A DNA stretch of 63,067 bases from Actinomycetota bacterium (GCA_017857875.1 JAFMCH010000004.1:1-63067); one strand, 5' to 3'; positions 7,062-63,067 are shown, numbered from the stretch's first letter. Numbers and translations: made by a program. Notes: a model not told the origin generated them from the sequence alone.

Positions 7062-8623
7062 TAGTCCACCTCCCCCACGTTCGCCAACGTGTTGGCAAAT
7101 GCCACCGCACGCAGCACAGCAGCAGCCTTCGATTCGCATTCGGCGTATTCACTTTCAGGATGTGAATCAGCCACGATGCCTGCTCCAGCCTGGACGATTG
7201 CGGTAGTGCCCACCAAAACCGCGGTTCGAATAGCGATGGCCGTATCTAGATCACCGGCAAAGTCGAGGTAACCCACGCATCCGCCGTATACGCCACGTTG
7301 GGCGGGTTCAAGTTCGTCGATGATGGCCATTGCGCTCGGTTTTGGTGCTCCCGACAACGTCCCGGCGGGAAAAGTTGCACGCAGGGCGTCGAACGCGGTG
7401 CGATCAGCAGCAAGATCGCCGATAACCGTGGACACCAGATGCATGACGTGCGAATACCGCTCAACCTGCATGAACTGCACGACTTCGACGCTGCCGGGCT
7501 CACACACACGACCTAGGTCATTGCGAGCCAAGTCAACGAGCATCAGATGCTCGGCCCGCTCCTTCTTGTCAGCTAGTAGATGCTCGGCCAACTCTTCGTC
7601 GCGTTCGGGACTCACACCCCGAGGTCGCGTGCCGGCGATCGGATGCACTCGACACTGCCCATCCGCGACCGTCACCAGCGCCTCGGGCGATGAGCCGACA
7701 ATGTCAAAACTCACAGTTGGGTTAAGCGGATCAGAGAACGGATCGGGCATCCGCAATAGGTACATGTAAGGACTGGGGTTTGTCGCGCGAAGTATTCGAT
7801 ACACATCAAGGGCGGATGCCGTGCAATCCACCTCAAATCTTTGCGACACAACGATTTGAAAGGCATCGCCGGCGCGAATGTGAGCTTTCGCCGCTGCTAC
7901 AGATGCCAGGTACTCAGCACGCGAGGTGCGGTGAGAGGGCATCGGCTCGGCACGGCTGTCATACACCGATACGGTCGAAGCGGCAGGTGCCTGCAAGTCG
8001 CGTTCCATGCCATCCAAACGAGCAAGGGCATCGTCATAGGCCATATCAACGCGCTCATCACTCGCGTCATAGTTAATGGCATTGGCGATCAGCAGCACGG
8101 TGCCATCGGTATGGTCCAAGACGGCTAGATCGCAGGCCAATAGAAAACCCATTTCGGGGACATCGTGCTCCTGGGGATTCGAATCGGGCACATATTCCCA
8201 GCGCCGAACGGCGTCGTATCCGATGAAGCCGACCATGCCGCCCGTGAGCGGGGGCAAGCCTGGCAATCGCGGGGTATGCAAGAGCGTGAGAACCTCGCGT
8301 AAGGCCGCGAGCGGGTCGCCCCCCGCATCAACACCAACCGGTGCGTTTCCCCACCAGTGTGCGACACCGTCAACCTCGCTCAGCATCGCTGCGCTGCGAA
8401 CGCCGACGAAACTGAAACGGCTAAATGATCGTCCTTGCTCAGCCGACTCAAACAGGAAACTACCTGCTCGTTCATGGCTCAGCTTGCGATACAGCCCGAT
8501 CGGTGTTTCGCCGTCTGCTAGCAGCCGGCGCGTTACCGGAATCACCCGCCGGCTGTCGGCTAGGTCGCGAAACTGCTCCAGGCTCGGGGCGTTGACGCCC
8601 GGTGTCGTCGGGCTTGTCGTCAT
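7061..8623 (-). CDS. trpE: Anthranilate synthase component I
   Basis: [55 protein letters not shown]. Confidence 0.97.
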
Positions 8624-9006
8624 GCCGGGTTACTCCTACCCGCAGCGCTTGCGTCCGACATACCCGCTGGCACGCGGCCTTCGAAACAAGAAACGCTCCC
8701 TGTGTGGCAGGCCGGACCCAGCTGGTCAACACTCAACAGCAACACGTCACCGTCGCAGTCGATACTGATCTCCCGGACCTGCTGCGCGTGCCCAGACGTC
8801 GCTCCCTTGACCCAATACTCTTGGCGACTGCGTGACCAATAGGTGGCTTGACCCGTGCGTTGCGTGCGCCGCAATGCCTCTGCATCCATCCAAGCCATCA
8901 TGAGTACCCGACCGGTTGCTGCGTCTTGAGCTATCACCGGAATCAAGCCGTCTGCTCCAAAAACTGGCTCGATCATCTCCATGGGTTCAGGTTCAGAGCT
9001 GCTCAT
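8620..9006 (-). CDS. hisI: Phosphoribosyl-AMP cyclohydrolase
   Basis: [35 protein letters not shown]; ATGA overlap with hisF stop. Confidence 0.95.
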
Positions 9007-9815
9007 GAACCCATTGTGGCTGGCTCGCGAACCCAATCGACATCGACCCGCACAGGGTATCCGGCCGCTCGCAGGTGTTCCTTCATTTGCGCAATGGTGA
9101 CCTGGCCGAAGTGGAAAATACTCGCGGCCAATACAGCATCGGCACCGGCCGCGACAGCGGGTGGGCCGTGCTCGGCCGCGCCTGCGCCACCGCTGGCAAT
9201 GACCGGCACGTTGACCGCTGCGCGGACTAGCTCAATGAGTTCCACATCAAAGCCGGCTTGTGTGCCATCAGCATCCATCGAGTTGAGCAGGATTTCCCCG
9301 GCACCTGCTTGAGCCCCCGAAACCGACCAGGCAACAGCGTCAATTCCCGTGCCGCGGCGTCCACCGTGGGTAGTGACCTCGAAGCCGCTTGGCGTTGCGT
9401 GTGGATCCTCGCATCGGCGTGCATCCACACTGAGCACGACACACTGCGAACCAAATCGGTCGGCGGCCTCGTTGATCAATTCAGGTCGAGCAATGGCGGC
9501 CGTATTGAGACTCACCTTGTCCGCCCCGGCCCGAAGCAGTCGGTCGAAGTCATCAACACTGCGCACTCCGCCGCCCACCGTCAACGGAATGAAGACCTGC
9601 TCGGCGGTGCGACGAACGACGTCGTACATGGTGGACCGATCAGCACTCGAAGCCGTAATGTCCAAGAAGACGAGTTCATCGACACCTTGAGCGTCATAGC
9701 GTCGCGCCAATTCCACCGGATCCCCCGCATCACGCAAGCCCGTGAAGTTGACACCTTTCACGACCCGCCCGGCATCGACATCCAGACACGCGATGACCCG
9801 TACGGCAAGGCTCAC
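9003..9815 (-). CDS. hisF: Imidazole glycerol phosphate synthase cyclase subunit
   Basis: [50 protein letters not shown]. Confidence 0.97.
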
Positions 9816-10597
9816 GGTTGCGGTGGACCCCAGAAATACAGGTCAAAGCGAGGTTCAATCGCGGCAACTGCTTCGGCCAACGTGAACGCGTTTTCATAAA
9901 GTGCCCGACCGATAATGGCACCTTCGATGCCGTGCGGAACGAGTTCGGCCAACCGATGCAAGTCTTCTAGCCGAGCGATGCCGCCTGAGGCAATGACGGG
10001 GCGATCAGTGTGCGCGCAGACTTTCTTCAGCAGGTGCAGATTGGGACCGTGCATCATGCCGTCCTTTTCCACATCTGTGACGATGTAACGCGCGCAACCA
10101 TCAGCGTCAAGCCGTGAGAGTGTCTCGAACAGGTCTCCACCTTCACTGGTCCACCCACGCGCTGCCAGCGTGTGTCCGCGAACGTCCAGCGAAACGGCAA
10201 TGCGATCTGCATGCTCGGCGATCACCGACCGCACCCACTCGGGGTTTTCCATGGCTGCCGTGCCAAGCACCACTCGGGTCGCGCCGGTGTTCAATGCCGC
10301 CCGCAATGAGTCGTCATCACGGATACCGCCGGCCACCTCAACATGAACGTCACCGCGAATTGCATGCACAACTTTGGTGAGGAGCTCATGATTGGATCCT
10401 CGTCCAAAGGCCGCATCCAGATCGACCAGGTGCACCCACGGCGCCCCCTGCTCGACCCAACCGCGAGCCGCCTGCACGGGGTCGCCGAAGTCAGTCTGCG
10501 AACCGGCCTCACCCTGAACGAGGCGAACAGCTCGTCCGTCTTGGATATCAACTGCGGGCAAGAGCGTGAATGCGGGCTTTTGCGGAGAAGGCGCCAT
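9812..10597 (-). CDS. priA: Bifunctional HisA/TrpF phosphoribosyl isomerase PriA
   Basis: [33 protein letters not shown] loop ([12 protein letters not shown]) typical of actinobacterial PriA; no trpF nearby. Confidence 0.93.
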
Positions 10598-10658
10598 GCC
10601 ATCACCCTACCGAGGAGGTCTTCTGAGGCATTGTCAAGGACTCACCTGGGGAATCGGC

Positions 10659-10988
10659 CTAGACCCGGCCGAAGGACATCACCCACACCACCGGCGCACA
10701 CAACAGACAGAACACCAGCAAAATCAGGCGGGCACCCCAACTTGGCATCAGCGGCCAGGCGATGAGACAGATCACCGCGATTCCACCGGCCATCACAGCT
10801 AACCGTCGCCTGCGACGTTGGGCGAGGAGCCCGGGAGTCGTCTTCGGCATCGACGGAACAAGCCGACGCAATGAACGCCCCCAAGCCTGGCGGCGGTCTA
10901 CCCGGGCGCGCCGCCGCGCACGTCTATTTCGTTCCTTGGCGGCCTCGCTCTCACGCAACTCCCGGCGCCGGGCCCGCTCTTTGCTCAC
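10659..10988 (-). CDS. Hypothetical Arg-rich protein with C-terminal two-helix membrane anchor
   Basis: From GTG 10988: VSKERARRRE...RRRRRLAVMAGGIAVICLIAWPLMPSWGARLILLVFCLLCAPVVWVMSFGRV; fills hisH-priA gap. Confidence 0.7.
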   Translation of the reverse strand: MSKERARRRELRESEAAKERNRRARRRARVDRRQAWGRSLRRLVPSMPKTTPGLLAQRRRRRLAVMAGGIAVICLIAWPLMPSWGARLILLVFCLLCAPVVWVMSFGRV

Positions 10989-11010
10989 CGAGTCAGTCCC
11001 GGGTGCTGGC

Positions 11011-11643
11011 TCATAATGTGCCAATCCAGTTGGCCAGGAGCACCGCACCTGCCTGCGCGGACTTTTCCGGATGAAACTGAGTGGCCCACAGCGGGCCGTT
11101 TTCGACCGCCGACACAAACGGTGCTTCGTAGGTGGTCCATGTCACAGCCGGCTGCGGTCCATAGGGATTGGGCGGTAGCACCCAATCCAAAGCGGCGTAG
11201 GAATGCACGAAGTAGAAGCGCGCGTCATGGACTCCGGCAAACATCAGCGAAGATTCCGGTGCGGACACCGTATTCCATCCCATATGCGGCACGACCCGTG
11301 CCGGCAGACGCTGCACGGTGCCGGGCCATTGGCCAAGACCCTCGGTCGTGACCTCATGTTCAACGCCCCATTCAAACAGCACCTGCATCCCCACGCAGAT
11401 TCCGAGAACTGGACGGTCTCCGGTCAACCGCTGATCAATAATCTGTGGCGCCTGAACCCCCCTGAGCCCTTCCATGCACGCGGCAAATGCGCCTACTCCA
11501 GGAACAACAAGGCCATCCGCGTTGAGCGCTGCTTGGCGATCATGCGATACCTCAACGGTGGCGCCGGCACGTTCAATGGCTCGGCTGGCTGAACGCACAT
11601 TGCCCGAGCCATAGTCCAAAACGACGACTCGCGGTTTGGTCAC
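11011..11643 (-). CDS. hisH: Imidazole glycerol phosphate synthase amidotransferase subunit
   Basis: [37 protein letters not shown]; start at 11643 (GTGA overlap) or 11655. Confidence 0.96.
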
Positions 11644-11801
11644 GCGGGGTTCCACGCATACAAAGCTCCGGCAATCAAGGACATCGCTGATAGCACGATA
11701 AAAATGATCATCGTCGTGCGTTTGCCCTGAGAGTAGAAGGAATAGGCACCACCCCCGAGGAAAGCGCCCAGACCCAACAACAGAATGGGTAGCCAGTTCA
11801 C
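11640..11801 (-). CDS. Small two-helix membrane protein of the hisB-hisH interval
   Basis: [53 protein letters not shown] (53 aa); resembles the small protein I recall at this position in Streptomyces-type his operons. Confidence 0.75.
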
Positions 11802-11814
11802 CGCTAAGGCCTCA

Positions 11815-12423
11815 CTACTCGACCGACTCACGCGATGACAACGTTCCCTTTGTGGAGGGAACACCGTGCACGCGAGGGTCAAGCGCCACTGCGTCGCGAA
11901 GGGCTCGGGCAAAGGACTTGAACTGCGCTTCTACGACGTGGTGGGCATTGCGTCCACTAATCACCCGAATGTGCAACGTGATTTGAGCCGTGGCAACAAA
12001 GGATTCGAAAATGTGTCGGGTCAAGGTGGTGTCGTAACTTCCGATCAATTCGACAATCTCGGGTTCCTCGTGCACCAGGTAGGGCCGTCCCGACAAGTCG
12101 ACAGCGCACTGGGACAAGGTTTCATCCAGCGGCACCAGGGCATCTCCGTACCGGCGTGTGCCCGCAGCATCGCCGAGGGCTTCTCGAAAAGCGGCGCCCA
12201 CGGCCAAGGACGTGTCTTCGACGGTGTGATGGGCATCTACTTCGAGGTCTCCAACGGTGCTAATACTCAAATCGAATCCACCGTGCTTGCCGAGTTGGGC
12301 CAACATGTGATCGAAAAAGGGCACACCGGTCGACACCTCGCACTGCCCCGTGCCATCCAGGTCAATCGACACGTTGACGCTGCTTTCCTTTGTCGCTCGT
12401 TCGACCCGACCCACTCGACTCAT
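11815..12423 (-). CDS. hisB: Imidazoleglycerol-phosphate dehydratase
   Basis: TGVPFFDHML, DAHHTVED, NAHHVVEAQFK, VPSTKGTL. Confidence 0.97.
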   Translation of the reverse strand: MSRVGRVERATKESSVNVSIDLDGTGQCEVSTGVPFFDHMLAQLGKHGGFDLSISTVGDLEVDAHHTVEDTSLAVGAAFREALGDAAGTRRYGDALVPLDETLSQCAVDLSGRPYLVHEEPEIVELIGSYDTTLTRHIFESFVATAQITLHIRVISGRNAHHVVEAQFKSFARALRDAVALDPRVHGVPSTKGTLSSRESVE

Positions 12424-12470
12424 GTCTGCGTCCTCACCTTCACGGTTTCATTCACCTGTCGCTACATGCC

Positions 12471-13610
12471 TCAGGTTGGCGTAGTGCCGTGGGAAATCAT
12501 GCCCGATGCTCCCCTTGCCAGAAGCAGGGCCTCGCGGAAGATCTCGTTCTGCGCAGCCGTGCCAATGCTGACACGCAACCATCCGGGCGGACCGCTCTCG
12601 CGGATAAGCACGCCGTGATCAAGCAATGCCTGCCACACAGCATGGGAATCGTCGAAGCATCCGAAGAGGATGAAGTTGGCATCGGAGTCCAACGCGGTAA
12701 ATCCGTTGTCACGCAGCCACACCAACAGTGCATCACGTTCCGTTCTCAGATCGCTGACCCGTCCGAGAAGTTCGTCGCTGTGTTCGAGGGCCACCTGCGC
12801 TATCACCTGGCTCAACTGCGAGAGGTGGTAGGGCAAGCGGACTAACTGCAATGCCTCAATCACCCGCGGATGTCCAACTGCGTATCCCAGACGTCCGCCG
12901 GCGAAGGCAAACGCCTTACTCATCGTGCGAGTCACAATCAGGTGCCGATACTTGGTGAGCAATGAAACTGCACTCGGCGTACCTTGACGACGGAACTCCG
13001 CGTACGCCTCGTCAACGACAACGATCGCGTCGGTCGCAGCGCATACTGTTTCGATAAATCGAAGTGGAACGGACGTGCCCGTCGGGTTATTGGGCGAGGT
13101 CAACACCACCAGCGACGGACGCTGATTGCCGATCGCCGAAGCGGCCTGATCAGCATCTAGCGAGAAGTTCGCTTGTCGCGCCACCTCGATGAATCCGGTG
13201 TGCGAATCCCTCGCATATTGCCCATACATGGAGTACGTAGGCGTGAATGTCAACGCGGTTCGACCTGGACCCCCGAAGGCGCTGAAGATTTGCGCCATGA
13301 CCTCGTTCGAGCCGTTGGCTGCCCACACATTGTCGGCCGATACTGCGGTATGAGACTCCCGCGTCACATAGGCCGCGAGTGCCTGTCGTAATTCCCGCGC
13401 ATCTCGATCGGGATAGCGATGAAGACTCAGCGCAGCGCTAGCTACTGCAGCCCCCATCGCCTGAGCAAGTTCCGGGGACGGCCCATAGGGATTCTCATTT
13501 GTATTGAGTCGGACCGGTACGTCGATTTGCGGTGCCCCATAGGGCGTTTCATGCAGCAGGTCATCGCGTACCGGCGGCCATTGCTCCGCCGATGCCTCAG
13601 GTATCGGCAC
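12471..13610 (-). CDS. hisC: Histidinol-phosphate aminotransferase
   Basis: [50 protein letters not shown]; start at GTG 13610 (track ORF over-extended into hisD). Confidence 0.95.
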
Positions 13611-14961
13611 GCTGCGCTCGACGAATGGTGATGGCTTCGGCGTGACCGGGAAGATCCTCCGCCCATGCCAATGCCACGACGTGATCGGCAACATCCGCGA
13701 GAGCATGCTCGTCGTAGTCAACGATATGAATACCTCGCAGGAACGTTTGCACGGACAACCCTGAGGAGTGCGTCGCCGATCCGCCAGTGGGAAGCACGTG
13801 ATTGGAGCCTGCGCAGTAGTCGCCAAGTGACACCGGCGCATAACCACCCACAAAAATTGCGCCGGCATTGCGCACTCGCATCGCAACTTCCCTTGCATCA
13901 CGGGTGTGGATTTCCAGGTGCTCTGCCGCATAGGCGTCAACGACGGCCAAGCCAGCACTGAGATCGTCCACGAGAACAATTCCGCTCTGCTTACCGTTGA
14001 GGGCCTCGGTGATGCGTTCCACATGCTTAGTCTTCGCCAGTTGCTCGCGCACTTGAGCCTCTACCGCCGTCGCGAGGCTCTCCGACGTGGTCACCAAAAC
14101 AGCCGCCGCAACGACGTCATGCTCTGCCTGGCTGATCAAATCGGCCGCAACGAAGGAGGCGTCGGCGGAATCATCAGCCAGGATCGCGACCTCGGTTGGA
14201 CCGGCTTCGCTATCAATTGCAATGACACCTTTGAGTAACCGTTTGGCCGCGGTCACCCAAATATTGCCCGGGCCGGTCACCATGTCGACCGGGTCACATC
14301 GGCGTGGCGAGCCGGCGGGGCTCGACGGATCGTCGTCTTGGTCCAGGTCCACCCCGTAGGCCAGCATCGCTACGGCCTGCGCGCCTCCGACGGAATACAC
14401 CTCATCAATGCCCAGCAGGCCGCATGTGGCCAAGATCGTCGGGTGGGGCAAATTGCCAAAGTCCCGCTGCGGCGGCGACACGACACACAAGGAGGCAACC
14501 CCGGCGATCTGCGCCGGCACCACATTCATGATGACGCTGCTGGGATAGACCGCCCGTCCGCCGGGAACATAGAGGCCCACGCGAGCCATCGGCAACCAGC
14601 GCTCGGTCACGGTTCCACCGGGGACCACGATCGTGGTTGTGTCGACGCGCCGCTGGTCGGTGTGCACCATCCGCACCCGTCGAATTGCTTCCAGTAGCGC
14701 CGCACGTACCTGGGGATCCAGCGCAGCCACGGCGTCATCAATCGCAGCAGCCGGCACCCGAAGTGAGGCTGGTCGCGCCCCATCAAAGGTTTCAGTCCAA
14801 TCCAAGACAGCAGCCGCACCACGCTGCTTCACATCAGCGACGACGGGGGCAACCTTGGTTGTGGCTTGTTCGACATCCATCGCGGCGCGCGGGAGCACCG
14901 ATTGAAGGTTTCCGGCAACCCCGCGCACGTCTACTCCTCGCAGATCTATGTGGCGCAGCAT
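13597..14961 (-). CDS. hisD: Histidinol dehydrogenase
   Basis: [55 protein letters not shown]. Confidence 0.97.
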
Positions 14962-58879: not shown

Positions 58880-58933
58880 TCAGGCAAAGCCGAATGCCCC
58901 CGCCCAGAACTCAGGCGGGTACATACTTTGCCC

Positions 58934-59995
58934 ATGTTGCGTATGCCCGCCGAATGGGAACCTCACGAGCGCACCTGGATGGCGTGGCCCAGTGAGGGCT
59001 ACACCATGGGGGCGTCTGGCAGCCAGATGCAGGCAACCCAGATGCAGGCAACCCAGATGCAGGCAACACTGTCGGCTTGGGCATCTGTGGCCCATGGTGT
59101 CGCACAGTACGAGCCGCTGACCATGGTCGTGGACCCCACGTCAGTCGATACGGCTCGTCAATGGTTGATCGGGGGCACGAAGTACCCGATTACTTTGATG
59201 GAGACTCCGCTCGATGACGCGTGGATGCGAGATATCGGGCCGACTTTTGTGATCGACACCGATCGCGCTCACGCCGATTCAGACACCCTCACGGCGGTTA
59301 ATTGGATCTTCAACGGTTGGGGACAACAGACCTGGGCAACATGGGGGAATGACGCGCACGTAGCGCACGCGATCATCTCGCAGTTGGGATGCCCGTCATT
59401 TGATTCACCATTGGTCAATGAAGGCGGGGGCATTCACGTTGATGGTCGGGGTACCGCGTTAGTGACAGAGACGGTTCAACGAGATCCCTATCGAAACCCG
59501 GGGTGGACGCGAGCCGACATCGAGGATCACCTGCGTGAAGCGATCGGGGTCAACCGCGTGATCTGGCTACCTAGGGGCCTAACCCGAGACTACGAAACTT
59601 TTGGCACGCGTGGCCACGTCGACATCGTGGCTTGCTTTACCCCAGTGGGCTCAGTTCTGGTGCACGACCAGCAAGATCCAGGTCACCCGGACTATGCGGT
59701 CTGCCAGGTGCTTCATCAATGTCTCAAGGACAGCGGTTTAGACATCGTCACCGTCCCCGCACCCACGATCACCACGGATGACGAAGGCTTCGTCGACTAC
59801 AGCTACATTAATCATTATGTGCTTAATGGCGCCGTCCTCCTGTGCGCCTTCGATGACCCAAATGATGAAGTGGCCCAACGGATTCTCGCTCAGGTCTACC
59901 CGGATCGACACATCGAACTCATTGACGCCCGGCGCATCTTCGCCCTCGGCGGTGGCATTCACTGCATCACCCAGCAGCAACCGCGACTGATCTGA
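58934..59995 (+). CDS. aguA: Agmatine deiminase (pentein/PPAD) family protein
   Basis: RMPAEWEPHERTWMAWP, DDAWMRDIGP, NEGGGI, GHVD, SYINHY, GGGIHCITQQQP (catalytic Cys); substrate not proven. Confidence 0.9.
   Translation: MLRMPAEWEPHERTWMAWPSEGYTMGASGSQMQATQMQATQMQATLSAWASVAHGVAQYEPLTMVVDPTSVDTARQWLIGGTKYPITLMETPLDDAWMRDIGPTFVIDTDRAHADSDTLTAVNWIFNGWGQQTWATWGNDAHVAHAIISQLGCPSFDSPLVNEGGGIHVDGRGTALVTETVQRDPYRNPGWTRADIEDHLREAIGVNRVIWLPRGLTRDYETFGTRGHVDIVACFTPVGSVLVHDQQDPGHPDYAVCQVLHQCLKDSGLDIVTVPAPTITTDDEGFVDYSYINHYVLNGAVLLCAFDDPNDEVAQRILAQVYPDRHIELIDARRIFALGGGIHCITQQQPRLI
59023..59067. repeat. 15-bp in-frame tandem repeat in aguA (QMQAT)
   Basis: ccagatgcaggcaac three times exactly. Confidence 0.93.
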
Positions 59996-60741
59996 TGGCG
60001 CTCACCCCCGGCGAAGCCGACCACCTGTTGCTCTTCACCCAGTCCCAGTTAGCTCTGAGTAGACGCGCACGCGGGCTTCGCCTTAACGTGCCCGAGGCAA
60101 CCGCGCTGATCGCCCATCAAATTTGCGAATGGGCGCGCGATGGCCTGAGCCTCGACGCTGCGCGCACTCAAGCACGCACCATTCTCGGAGTCAACGACGT
60201 TCTACCCGAAGTACCCGAGATCGTCACCGAGATTCGTGTCGAAGCTCGCTTCGACGACGGTACGCGCCTGGTTGTTGTGGCCCACCCGTTCGAACCGTCG
60301 CCAACAATGGACATCGACGAAGCATCGGCTCCCCCGGCGCATGACTACCTGACTTTGCACAACATGGCCGAGACGGACATCGGCGTGACCTCACATCAGC
60401 ATCTGGCAGAGGTCAATCCGCGGATTCGCCTTGATCGATCCCGAGCTTTCGGCATGCGTCTGGCGTTGCCCGCCGGAGACACGCAGTGGCTGCGATCGGG
60501 CACAAGCGTGACCGCGCCCATTACGCCGATTGGTGGCGATCGGATTGTTATCGGCAATACCGGCCTAGTGGACGGCCCCCTTGATGATTCCCACGTGCGC
60601 GAGCGCGCATTACGCAAACTGCGCCAGTGCGGTTACCTCGATGAATCACAGGGCGAACCGATCGGGGACCTGGCTGGGGCAAATCGCGCAGTGAGCAAAA
60701 TTATGGATGACCTGCGTAAATCAAGGCAGCGGCCGCAATGA
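59995..60741 (+). CDS. ureAB: Fused urease gamma/beta-like subunit
   Basis: Gamma: RRARGLRLNVPEA..LI, VEARFDDGTRLVVV; beta: SHQHLAEVNP..RLDR..AFGMRLALPAG. Confidence 0.88.
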   Translation: MALTPGEADHLLLFTQSQLALSRRARGLRLNVPEATALIAHQICEWARDGLSLDAARTQARTILGVNDVLPEVPEIVTEIRVEARFDDGTRLVVVAHPFEPSPTMDIDEASAPPAHDYLTLHNMAETDIGVTSHQHLAEVNPRIRLDRSRAFGMRLALPAGDTQWLRSGTSVTAPITPIGGDRIVIGNTGLVDGPLDDSHVRERALRKLRQCGYLDESQGEPIGDLAGANRAVSKIMDDLRKSRQRPQ

Positions 60742-62396
60742 GCAGTTACGGACCGCGAGCCGGCGATATCGTCACACTTGGTGGCACGGGCCTGCAGCTG
60801 CACATCGACGACCGTGTCGATGATCAATACGATGAGTTTCGCGTCGGTTTCGCCAAGACAGGTCGCGACGGAATAGGGCTCAAATCCGTTGCTACACAGG
60901 ATTCCTGTGATCTGTTGTTGTCGAACGCTATCGTGCTTGATCCGATTGACGGAGTTCGCGTTGCGAGCATCGGTTTTCGAGATGGGCGAATCTGCGGCAT
61001 CGGCAAAGCAGGGAATCCGGACACCACACACGGCGTCGACATAGTCGTCGGTTCCGGCACAGTCGTCATTGACGCTGATGGCCTCATTGCCACACCGGGC
61101 GGGATCGATACCCACGTTCACAGTCTTAGCCCGCGAGTGTTTAACTCACTGATCTCCAGCGGCATTACCACCGTGATCGCCCAGGAAACCGGCCCTGTGT
61201 GGGGAGTTGGGATCGGTTCTCGCGCGCTCTTGCATCAGGCCTATCGAGCCATGGATAACTTCCCGCTCAACATTGGGATCCTGGGGCGGGGTTCCACCTC
61301 GGCCGATGTGGTCACTCGCGAGGCAATCTTGGCGCATGTGTGCGGCTTCAAAGTGCATGAAGACACCGGCACAACTTTGCGAACACTGGACACCGCATTG
61401 CGAGCAGCGGATTTTGCCGATGTTCAAGTGGCCGTGCACACCGATAGCCTCAATGAGTCGCTCTCCGTGGCCGACACAATTGCAGTGCTCGACGGACGAG
61501 TCGTTCACGCGTATCACGTCGAAGGGTGTGGCGGCGGTCATACGCCAGACGTACTGCAACTTGCCGGGCACGACAACATCTTGGCCTCATCCACTAATCC
61601 GACGTTGCCCTACGGCATCAATGCGATCGACGAACACCTCGACATGATCATGCTCACACACGGGATGAACGCGCACCGTGAGTCAGATATCCGAATCGCT
61701 CAAGCGCGAGTGCGCGCAACCACGATGGCGGCCGAAAACCAACTGCACGATCGCGGTGTTATTCCTATTACCTCTTCAGATGCCCAAGGCATGGGACGCG
61801 CCGGTGAAACCTGGTGGCGTACCTTCGCTTTGGCATCGGTACTCCGCCCCGACCCCACGGATTCAACCCGCCGGGACAATGAGCGCATCCTTCGGTACCT
61901 GGCAAAGATCACTATCAACCCGGCACTCGCACACGGACTCAGTCACGAAATCGGCCGTATCAGCGAGGGCTATCTCGGCGATATTGTTTTGTGGCAGCCC
62001 GAGCGGTTCGCCGCCACACCTCAACTCATCTTGAAAAGTGGCTTCCCCACCTGGGGTCAGACCGGAGACCCCAATGCAAGTATCGACTCCGCCGAGCCGC
62101 TGATTACGGCCGAACAATTTGGTGCCTATGCTGCCGCGCCTAGCGACCTGTCGTTCCTGCTGAGCAATGCGGTCGCCATCGCGGAGGGGCCTCCCCCCAC
62201 ACATCGCCGTGCCCTGGCCGTGCGCGGATGTCGCTCCGTTCGCAACGCCGATATGATCCGGCACGGAGAATCTGGCCCCGTCGAGGTAGTCACCTCGTTA
62301 GGAAGCAACCCGCAGCCAGTCGTACGTTGGCGCGGTGAGGAGTTAACGATGCAACCGGTCGAACACACTCCCCTGTCACGCCTGCATTTTTGGTAG
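60738..62396 (+). CDS. ureC: Urease alpha-like Ni-amidohydrolase (divergent)
   Basis: GKAGNPD, GGIDTHVH, GFKVHED, VHTDSLNE, HVEGCGGGH, STNPTLP, SSDAQGMGRAGE, RYLAKITINPALAHG. Confidence 0.9.
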   Translation: MSSYGPRAGDIVTLGGTGLQLHIDDRVDDQYDEFRVGFAKTGRDGIGLKSVATQDSCDLLLSNAIVLDPIDGVRVASIGFRDGRICGIGKAGNPDTTHGVDIVVGSGTVVIDADGLIATPGGIDTHVHSLSPRVFNSLISSGITTVIAQETGPVWGVGIGSRALLHQAYRAMDNFPLNIGILGRGSTSADVVTREAILAHVCGFKVHEDTGTTLRTLDTALRAADFADVQVAVHTDSLNESLSVADTIAVLDGRVVHAYHVEGCGGGHTPDVLQLAGHDNILASSTNPTLPYGINAIDEHLDMIMLTHGMNAHRESDIRIAQARVRATTMAAENQLHDRGVIPITSSDAQGMGRAGETWWRTFALASVLRPDPTDSTRRDNERILRYLAKITINPALAHGLSHEIGRISEGYLGDIVLWQPERFAATPQLILKSGFPTWGQTGDPNASIDSAEPLITAEQFGAYAAAPSDLSFLLSNAVAIAEGPPPTHRRALAVRGCRSVRNADMIRHGESGPVEVVTSLGSNPQPVVRWRGEELTMQPVEHTPLSRLHFW

Positions 62397-62406
62397 GCAG
62401 AACTAC

Positions 62407-63067
62407 ATGTGGGAATGGTTAGACCCTGGCCTCAGCGTCGGTGGTCTCCTCGCCGGTGTCATGGTCGGGTTAACGGGCATGGGTGGCGCCGCTCTCGTCA
62501 CGCCCATGCTTGTGCTGTTCTTCAACGTTCCCGCAGCGGCCGCGGTGAGTTCAGATGTGGTGGCTTCCGCAGTGATGAAGCCCGTCGGTGCATTCGTGCA
62601 CATCCGGCATTCCACCGTGCACTGGGGCATTGTGGGCTGGCTATCGGCAGGTTCGATACCCGGCGTCTTGATCGGCACCCTGATTTTCGCCATCGTCTCT
62701 GACACAGAGGGAGTCGAGGACACCATCCGAGTGTGGATTGGTCTTGTGTTGATCCTGGCGCTCCTGGCCATGGTGGGACGAGCCTTCGTCTCGGCGCGCG
62801 CTACCCGGCTGCGTGGACCGGCACCCATGGAAGGCACCAATGCCGCGGTCAGGATCGCACCGACGATCATTTTGGGGTTCCTAGTCGGGCTCTTAGTCGG
62901 CACGACAAGTGTCGGATCCGGCTCGCTCATCGTCACCACCATGCTCCTGCTCTATCCGTTACTTCGCCCGAGCGTTCTCGTCGGCACTGATCTAACTCAA
63001 GCAGTGCCGATGCTGGTGGTGGGCGCAATCGCGCATGCGGGGATCGGTGGCGTGGACTGGGCGGTCA
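62407..63067 (+). CDS. TauE/SafE (TSUP) sulfite/sulfonate exporter family protein, 3' truncated by window
   Basis: Manual translation from ATG 62407: MWEWLDPGLSVGGLLAGVMVGLTGMGGAALVTPML...AVSSD...MKPVG; second repeat VGTTSVGSGS; no stop before window end. Confidence 0.88.
   Translation, partial: MWEWLDPGLSVGGLLAGVMVGLTGMGGAALVTPMLVLFFNVPAAAAVSSDVVASAVMKPVGAFVHIRHSTVHWGIVGWLSAGSIPGVLIGTLIFAIVSDTEGVEDTIRVWIGLVLILALLAMVGRAFVSARATRLRGPAPMEGTNAAVRIAPTIILGFLVGLLVGTTSVGSGSLIVTTMLLLYPLLRPSVLVGTDLTQAVPMLVVGAIAHAGIGGVDWAV

Follow-up and report, generated by a model that had tools for sequence, protein, structure and literature searches.

We propose, with slightly better than even confidence, that a urease-like enzyme (UreAB/UreC) encoded in an actinobacterial genome serves as a non-homologous N-carbamoylputrescine amidohydrolase in place of AguB, acting after an AguA-type agmatine deiminase encoded directly upstream. 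The genes lie at the end of a 63,067-bp stretch of DNA (GCA_017857875.1, JAFMCH010000004.1:1-63067; hereafter the window), which is a complete contig (C26) of a 2.27 Mb assembly with 117 contigs and an estimated completeness of 96.8%. The nearest relatives of its UreC are labelled Candidatus Nanopelagicales or Actinomycetes metagenome-assembled genomes, and the locus was recovered from aquatic, estuary and seawater metagenomes; the host is a freshwater or estuarine actinobacterium. Non-orthologous displacement of AguB by the urease-like pair would be the simplest account of the data. The genes of the locus are as follows.

58934..59995, + strand: AguA-type deiminase (PAD_porph), 353 aa from the ATG at 58934, with an alternative TTG start at 58928 (353-355 aa); PF04371, 328 bits
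59995..60741, + strand: fused UreAB (gamma-beta), 248 aa; PF00547 and PF00699 in a single protein
60738..62396, + strand: UreC (divergent alpha subunit, predicted catalytic), 552 aa; PF00449 and PF01979 (Urease_alpha, Amidohydro_1)
62407..63067 (contig end), + strand: predicted TauE/SafE (TSUP-family) membrane transporter; PF01925, 110 bits
57597-58865, - strand: sulfide:quinone-reductase-like flavoprotein (sqr), divergent, upstream of the deiminase gene

An earlier note, made from this sequence alone, described the deiminase, UreAB, UreC and TauE genes as co-oriented, which open reading frame calls and family matches bore out. The junctions that it gave match the sequence exactly: the deiminase stop and the ureAB ATG overlap as TGATG, the ureAB stop and the ureC ATG overlap as ATGA, and a gap of 10 nt separates ureC from the TauE gene. 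It also proposed a leaderless promoter. The hexamer CATACT does lie 6 nt 5' of the ATG at 58934, but a consensus scan gives no sigma-70 promoter; CATACT is a -10-like hexamer only, and a leaderless start is an unproven guess. Short metatranscriptome contigs (at least 99% identity) match ureC (region 61494-62182) in three runs, which belong to two studies, and one run has a match to sqr. These environmental RNA matches are weak evidence of transcription, with DNA carry-over possible, and do not imply that the four genes are co-transcribed.

To place the urease-like pair, we used a survey of 301 genomes restricted to the phylum Actinomycetota. UreC similarity to the window protein was bimodal in this set, with six Streptomyces-type genomes at 52-55% identity and all others at 46% or less. 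A scan of species-representative genomes added 80 named loci with 52-74% UreC identity, carried by Nanopelagicales, Kribbella, Nonomuraea, Sphaerimonospora, Streptomyces, Intrasporangiaceae, Acidimicrobiales and others. A phylogeny of 123 UreC sequences was reconstructed using IQ-TREE in quick mode under the LG+G4 model, with Shimodaira-Hasegawa approximate likelihood ratio test (SH-aLRT) values as the only branch support. All 90 UreC sequences from loci without accessory genes formed a single clade (SH-aLRT 100), which includes a deeper subclade from another class (family f21). Its sister group, a fused-(AB) urease (L088/G139 and L114/G152), is accompanied by ureE, ureF, ureG and ureD, and the remaining chaperone-linked, canonical ureases all fall outside the clade. 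This sister type resembles the ureEF(AB)CGD clusters of Bradyrhizobium and Pseudomonas syringae (PMC2492869). The window pair shares the features of the clade, namely a fused UreAB, no ureDEFG genes, monophyly with the Streptomyces members and PAD or polyamine-type neighbours. Across the tree and the loci, pentein deiminases accompany the clade and ureDEFG genes never do, as the earlier note's proposal would lead one to expect.

Maturation genes were sought in two ways. No Pfam match to UreD or UreF (PF01774, PF01730) was found in the ~97%-complete genome, and its sole match to the cobW/UreG family scored 25 bits, within a 527-aa frame. Using tblastn with UreD, UreE, UreF and UreG probes taken from four canonical actinobacterial urease clusters, we found no match in the genome and none in the 1.43 Mb that 84 related loci span. 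As a positive control, these probes cross-match all four canonical loci.

Neighbouring genes were scored with a tblastn probe panel within 10 kb of UreC. Among 80 main-clade loci, a PAD deiminase is the partner at 46 and a YtcJ-like Amidohydro_3 protein (PF07969) at 22; one locus has both together and 11 have neither, mostly on short contigs or on contigs that end at UreC. The f21 subclade has the same two alternative partners, and the UreC tree shows at least 8-10 changes of partner between PAD and Amidohydro_3. The conserved unit is thus UreAB-UreC plus either a deiminase or a YtcJ-like amidohydrolase. It is not the four-gene unit that the earlier note described, as only close relatives have TauE and sqr, apart from one distant locus with TauE, nor is the deiminase a constant partner, because the YtcJ-like protein stands in its place at about one third of loci. 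The Amidohydro_3 partner matches only the uncharacterised structures 3ICJ and 3IGH in the PDB and has no NCBIfam model match. Other genes that recur in related loci encode an ATP-binding cassette (ABC) importer of the PotA/B/C/D type, with a PotD/PotF-like binding protein, TetR or LacI regulators, an NCS1 permease (in Streptomyces) and an APC permease (in Nonomuraea). In all six Streptomyces-type survey genomes the PAD gene lies 35-145 nt 3' of ureC, and UreD is found elsewhere, beside the canonical urease. At the level of whole genomes, a PAD was detected in 15 of the 19 genomes with this UreC clade versus 24 of the 282 without it (p = 9e-12, ignoring kinship).

Three loci have unusual arrangements. 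L048 carries tetR, ureAB, ureC, PAD and Amidohydro_3 in a single operon (8608-14486), which indicates that the two partners are not strictly exclusive. In L098, a distant relative (G261:C132, 1756-5139), the deiminase gene lies between ureAB and ureC, an unusually intimate arrangement. The Streptomyces-type genome G282 (C1:445523-448917 and 5283224-5286046) has no UreD and a fragmented canonical ureC with an in-frame TAG, and its accessory-less ureAB-ureC-PAD locus is intact.

The gene that would normally follow the deiminase in the pathway is distributed in an either/or fashion. No CN-hydrolase gene occurs within 10 kb of the PAD at any of 48 UreABC-linked loci, and an AguB-like CN-hydrolase is directly adjacent in 7 of 20 PAD loci that are not beside the urease-like pair (0/48 versus 7/19 with one contig-edge locus excluded; Fisher p = 6e-5). 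True AguB, scoring above the TIGR03381 cut-off, is present in 6 of the 301 genomes, adjacent to PAD in five of these six, and in none of the nine genomes with a UreABC-linked PAD. This pattern supports the proposal of the earlier note: the neighbour of a PAD may be AguB or the urease-like pair, and is never both.

The gene inventory of the host was searched for other enzymes that could use the deiminase product or supply its substrate. As the earlier note had stated, neither AguB nor putrescine transcarbamylase is encoded in the window, since the contig has no CN-hydrolase and no ornithine transcarbamylase (OTCase)-family matches. The genome contains two OTCase-family genes (contigs C55 and C11), presumably ArgF and PyrB, and so has no putrescine transcarbamylase. 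It has five CN-hydrolase matches, the best of which, located away from the deiminase, reaches 248 bits against an AguB cut-off of 410. With neither AguB nor a transcarbamylase, the only recognised consumer of the deiminase product is the translationally coupled urease-like enzyme. No arginase-family gene was found in the genome, hence no agmatinase or other ureohydrolase that makes urea. The single gene with the Orn/Arg-decarboxylase fold is probably LysA, which leaves no obvious internal source of agmatine. We also considered urea supplied by a neighbouring ureohydrolase, and rejected it because related loci have no recurrent arginase-family gene either (of two motif matches, one is probably coincidental).

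The best host CN-hydrolase (G000:C35:7257-9146, 248 bits) forms a pair with the gene of a luciferase-like (F420-type) oxidoreductase. It was rejected as a hidden AguB, as it scores far below the cut-off, lies beside this oxidoreductase and has paralogues that are common in genomes without PAD. The wide occurrence of this ~250-bit paralogue in PAD-less Actinomycetota suggests that it belongs to a separate, unassigned family. The only clade loci with a CN-hydrolase-like match are three of the Nonomuraea type (L031, L060 and L070; lacI, ureAB, ureC, Amidohydro_3, APC permease), where the gene lies ~3 kb 3' of ureC.

The deiminase of the window scores 246 bits against the AguA equivalog model TIGR03380, below its cut-off of 382, and about 180 bits against the plant agmatine deiminases (agmatine iminohydrolases) 6NIB and 1VKP. 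For the Medicago agmatine iminohydrolase, roles have been assigned to a Cys/His/Asp triad, a guanidine-binding Asp, channel tryptophans, Asp89 and the terminal-amine residue Asp220 (PMC6447857). The window protein keeps Asp89, Trp91, Asp94, Trp125, Asp218, His224, Asp226, Gly361 and Cys366, including the equivalents of the pentein triad and guanidine-binding Asp (C366, H224, D226, D94 and D218). Its Asp220 loop has an insertion, where a pairwise alignment places Glu and a multiple alignment places Gly; the same type of loop is found in an AguB-linked homologue (L145). In a tree of 69 PADs, the UreABC-linked sequences are polyphyletic, being scattered among AguB-linked and unlinked PADs, with at least eight switches between linkage types that are forced by well-supported branches, and the AguB-linked PAD of L145 falls inside a 100%-supported group that contains the window PAD. 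Catalytic and substrate-channel residues are identical between UreABC-linked and AguB-linked PADs. The deiminases at UreABC loci are thus predicted to be ordinary AguA-family enzymes. A route in which the deiminase converts free guanidine to urea for a true urease is disfavoured because this deiminase, with its channel Trp and cationic-tail acidic residues kept, is indistinguishable from AguB-linked AguA.

The deiminase gene also contains a perfect 15-nt tandem repeat in three copies (59023-59067), which translates to (QMQAT)x3 within an insert at the protein surface. The deiminases of near-identical relatives are 348 and 358 aa long, lengths that fit one repeat copy fewer and one more, suggesting that the repeat is variable and in-frame.

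The urease-like proteins have an intact catalytic core and a remodelled pocket. UreAB scores 221 bits against NF009671 (bifunctional urease subunit gamma/beta; cut-off 243) and UreC scores 522 bits against the urease-alpha equivalog TIGR01792, below its cut-off of 680; the wider subfamily model NF009686 is passed by UreC with 603 bits (cut-off 354). UreC matches Klebsiella aerogenes UreC at ~437 bits and 3QGA, the structure of the iron urease UreA2B2 of Helicobacter mustelae, at 431 bits. We compared 90 clade members with 31 canonical actinobacterial ureases, using the residue numbering of K. aerogenes urease. H134, H136, K217 (carbamylated), H246, H272, D360, H219, D221 and H320 are invariant in all 90 clade members and R336 is kept in 88; relative to K. 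aerogenes, the window UreC retains all metal ligands as well as H219, D221, H320 and R336. Surrounding motifs have changed in the window protein: GGGTGPAAG to AQETGPVWG with an adjacent deletion, HEDWG to HEDTG, EGAGGGHAPD to EGCGGGHTPD, the flap motif CHH to THG, and SQAMGR to AQGMGR. Its residues at 167/222/276/319/321/363 are I/T/C/T/G/G. The positions replaced across the clade, listed below, are invariant or nearly so in the 31 canonical ureases.

Position 167: canonical A; clade V/I/L
Position 222: canonical W; clade T/M/L, with W kept in the f21 subclade
Position 276: canonical A; clade C
Position 319: canonical C; clade V/S/A, with C kept in 13/80
Position 321: canonical H; clade G/D/A
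Position 363: canonical A; clade G, with G also in the sister clade
Positions 157-158: canonical GG; clade QE
Positions 171-173: canonical TPG; deleted in the clade

In canonical urease, the urea nitrogens are held by the backbone carbonyls of Ala170, Ala366 and Gly280 (A167, A363 and G277 in K. aerogenes), and the distal nitrogen is directed into the channel of the active site beneath the flap, beside Cys322 and His323 (C319 and H320 in K. aerogenes) (PMC7433671). Given these contacts, the replaced positions are those that would meet a substituent on the distal nitrogen, and we infer that the changes in pocket and flap may make room for one.

These comparisons suggest a two-step route. In the first, strongly inferred step, the AguA-type deiminase would convert agmatine, or a very similar guanidino-amine, to N-carbamoylputrescine and ammonia. 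In the second, for which comparative genomics is the guide, UreAB/UreC would hydrolyse N-carbamoylputrescine to putrescine and carbamate, with carbamate breaking down to CO2 and ammonia, so that two ammonia molecules would be released per agmatine. UreAB/UreC would have the urease fold and a dinuclear metal centre, and would be assembled without UreD, UreE, UreF or UreG. The carbamoyl end of the substrate may sit on the metals as urea does, and the substituted nitrogen and aminobutyl chain would extend into the channel below the remodelled flap. The most likely role is the scavenging of nitrogen from external guanidino-amines, because there is no clear agmatine synthesis in this genome and polyamine-type importers and TetR regulators are found in related loci. 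The earlier note's central idea, hydrolysis of the ureido product by the urease-like enzyme, passed the comparative tests that were run (clade co-occurrence and AguB alternation). Its description of an undescribed pathway was too strong: this would be the known route from agmatine through N-carbamoylputrescine to putrescine, with a non-homologous second enzyme.

Several points weigh against an N-carbamoylputrescine amidohydrolase. The argument is comparative throughout, drawing on gene context, phylogeny and residue patterns, and both the UreC and the PAD tree come from a quick method (LG+G4, SH-aLRT only). Ureases have a very tight substrate specificity, and urea activity of UreAB/UreC is possible because every residue needed for urea hydrolysis appears intact. 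The uncharacterised Amidohydro_3 replaces the deiminase at about a third of loci, four of the 19 genomes with the UreC clade have no PAD, and the genomes counted for co-occurrence share ancestry, so that the counts are not independent. The f21 subclade retains W222. Finally, the ~250-bit AguB-like CN-hydrolase paralogues of Streptomyces and of this genome could in principle take N-carbamoylputrescine.

A broader proposal, for which we see a little less than an even chance, is that the whole urease branch is a self-assembling, chaperone-independent N-carbamoyl-amine amidohydrolase, possibly with a metal other than nickel, and that Amidohydro_3 would be a second, non-pentein enzyme that forms ureido compounds. 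The branch is large, abundant in the environment and widespread, spanning freshwater Nanopelagicales-like and Acidimicrobiia-like genomes, Streptomyces, Kribbella and Nonomuraea.

The foremost alternative is that UreAB/UreC is a genuine urease that is loaded with metal without chaperones and shares only its regulation with nitrogen-scavenging neighbours, its urea being taken up from the surroundings or made by another reaction. The metal ligands, the carbamylated Lys, H219, D221, H320 and R336 are all intact and NF009686 is passed, which speaks for such an enzyme. Chaperone-independent ureases do exist, in Bacillus subtilis and as the iron urease UreA2B2 of Helicobacter mustelae. The Streptomyces genes also have a published annotation as 'ureABC' (PMC3293853). 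We nevertheless consider a genuine urease unlikely, as the urea-contact and flap positions are replaced clade-wide and the TIGR01792 equivalog cut-off is missed. The neighbours yield ureido compounds rather than urea, with no recurrent or host arginase-family gene, and the either/or pattern with AguB is left unexplained. Most surveyed Streptomyces genomes also keep a canonical, chaperone-equipped urease beside the pair, which argues that the two enzymes are not redundant.

A rather smaller chance is given to the possibility that the pair is an amidohydrolase for a different N-carbamoyl or guanidino-derived substrate, such as carbamoylated longer polyamines, other ureido products or the Amidohydro_3 product, with agmatine being one feed among others or non-physiological. 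The repeated switching of partner within the clade and the presence of both partners in L048 fit this, as do the transporters, which vary among loci (Pot-type ABC, NCS1, APC and TauE), and the variable loop at the agmatine terminal-amine residue Asp220. AguA homologues have also been reported to act on bis-guanidino-homospermidine (PMC13625781). On the other hand, the PADs match AguB-linked PADs in catalytic and channel residues and interleave with them phylogenetically, and the linked binding proteins are PotD/PotF-like, both of which favour N-carbamoylputrescine as the substrate.

TauE and sqr could be taken to point elsewhere. TauE comprises 220 of ~297 aa (its full length in relatives), cut off because the window is the whole contig and ends in the gene; it scores 110 bits against PF01925 (cut-off 32.6) and has no NCBIfam model match. 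A full-length TauE gene lies 3' of ureC in L001 and L004; L006, at 74% UreC identity, has no TauE and retains sqr, which is kept divergent of the deiminase in all three loci. In the distant f21 locus L097, TauE is upstream of PAD-ureAB-ureC and there is no sqr. Of 96 clade loci that were probed, four have TauE, a predicted, lineage-specific accessory transporter outside the conserved core. The sqr protein is of type III, with 218 bits to the selenoprotein-subtype model NF049943, far below its cut-off; the open reading frame as listed probably starts ~24 codons too early, as its Rossmann motif begins at residue 30.

In a third alternative, the substrate would be a guanidino-sulfonate, for instance taurocyamine, with TauE as the exporter of a sulfonate or sulfite end-product and sqr as part of the same sulfur unit. 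The position of TauE 10 nt after ureC and of sqr divergently upstream, both kept in close relatives, and the recurrence of TauE with PAD-ureAB-ureC in L097 are consistent with this. However, TauE is gone in L006, L097 lacks sqr, and the TauE-linked PADs keep the acidic channel residues for a cationic tail and resemble AguB-linked PADs. In addition, sqr and tauE are paired elsewhere, in the staphylococcal cst operon, and this known pair may simply flank an inserted cassette. With TauE at so few of the loci and no distinctive tail residues in the TauE-linked deiminases, guanidino-sulfonate use was rejected as the principal explanation and we regard it as improbable. Least credible of all is the idea that the locus is the dead remnant of a urease operon, its accessory genes lost: these genes are indeed absent, and one clade member is truncated (G014/L103) and another split in two pieces (G222/L102), but the catalytic residues are all kept at 42-99% identity across two classes, the frames are intact and tightly coupled to neighbouring genes, and environmental RNA gives some sign of transcripts.

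Urease is the textbook case of a highly substrate-specific, chaperone-dependent nickel enzyme. If UreAB/UreC does act on N-carbamoylputrescine, this would be the first natural non-urea substrate of the urease fold, and a third non-homologous route from N-carbamoylputrescine to putrescine besides AguB and putrescine transcarbamylase; polyamine and agmatine metabolism would gain a non-homologous enzyme. Thousands of "urease" annotations would change, including those behind urea-cycling estimates from aquatic metagenomes, and the orphan "second urease" of Streptomyces would be explained. The clade would also provide a natural experiment on how flap and pocket control urease specificity and on metal loading. 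The chemistry of the pathway is known already; what would be new is the proposed urease-fold second step and the chaperone-less branch of the urease family.

The closest known system is the 'ure(AB)C-only' cluster SCO5525-SCO5526 of S. coelicolor and S. avermitilis, described in 2008, which encodes an alpha and a fused gamma-beta subunit and has no accessory genes (PMC2492869). The adjacent PAD-family gene SCO5527 was listed as an AguA homologue in 2012 (PMC3293853). The linkage of ureAB, ureC and a deiminase in Streptomyces, which the earlier note had mentioned, is thus real, both in the survey genomes and in these two papers. The literature searched assigns SCO5525-5527 no function beyond 'urease' and contains no paper that links the urease pair to the aguA homologue, no urease-type N-carbamoylputrescine amidohydrolase and no biochemistry on the clade. 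The Streptomyces loci belong to the same UreC clade as the window, at 52-55% identity, with PAD directly downstream. They differ in gene order (ureAB-ureC-PAD-tetR plus a divergent NCS1 permease, versus PAD-ureAB-ureC-tauE in the window), and most surveyed Streptomyces keep a canonical chaperone-dependent urease, which the window genome lacks.

With the canonical nickel ureases of K. aerogenes (2KAU/1FWJ) and Sporosarcina pasteurii (4UBP), the window pair shares the fold, the subunit domains, the six metal-site residues and H219/D221/H320/R336. It differs from them in having no accessory genes, a replaced pocket and flap, a separate clade and neighbours that make ureido-amines. H. mustelae UreA2B2 (3QGA) and B. 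subtilis urease likewise have the urease fold and gain activity without dedicated accessory proteins; both are true ureases and, unlike the window pair, have a canonical pocket and no deiminase linkage. The AguA-AguB system of Pseudomonas aeruginosa and plants, of which classical aguA-aguB pairs are present in other surveyed Actinomycetota, has the same first-enzyme family and the same predicted chemistry, from agmatine to putrescine, CO2 and two NH3. Its second enzyme, AguB, is a Cys-Glu-Lys CN-hydrolase (PF00795), whereas the enzyme proposed here would be a metal-dependent, urease-fold amidohydrolase. As UreAB/UreC belongs to the amidohydrolase superfamily, the claim is that it would work like AguB and not that it is a member of the AguB family.

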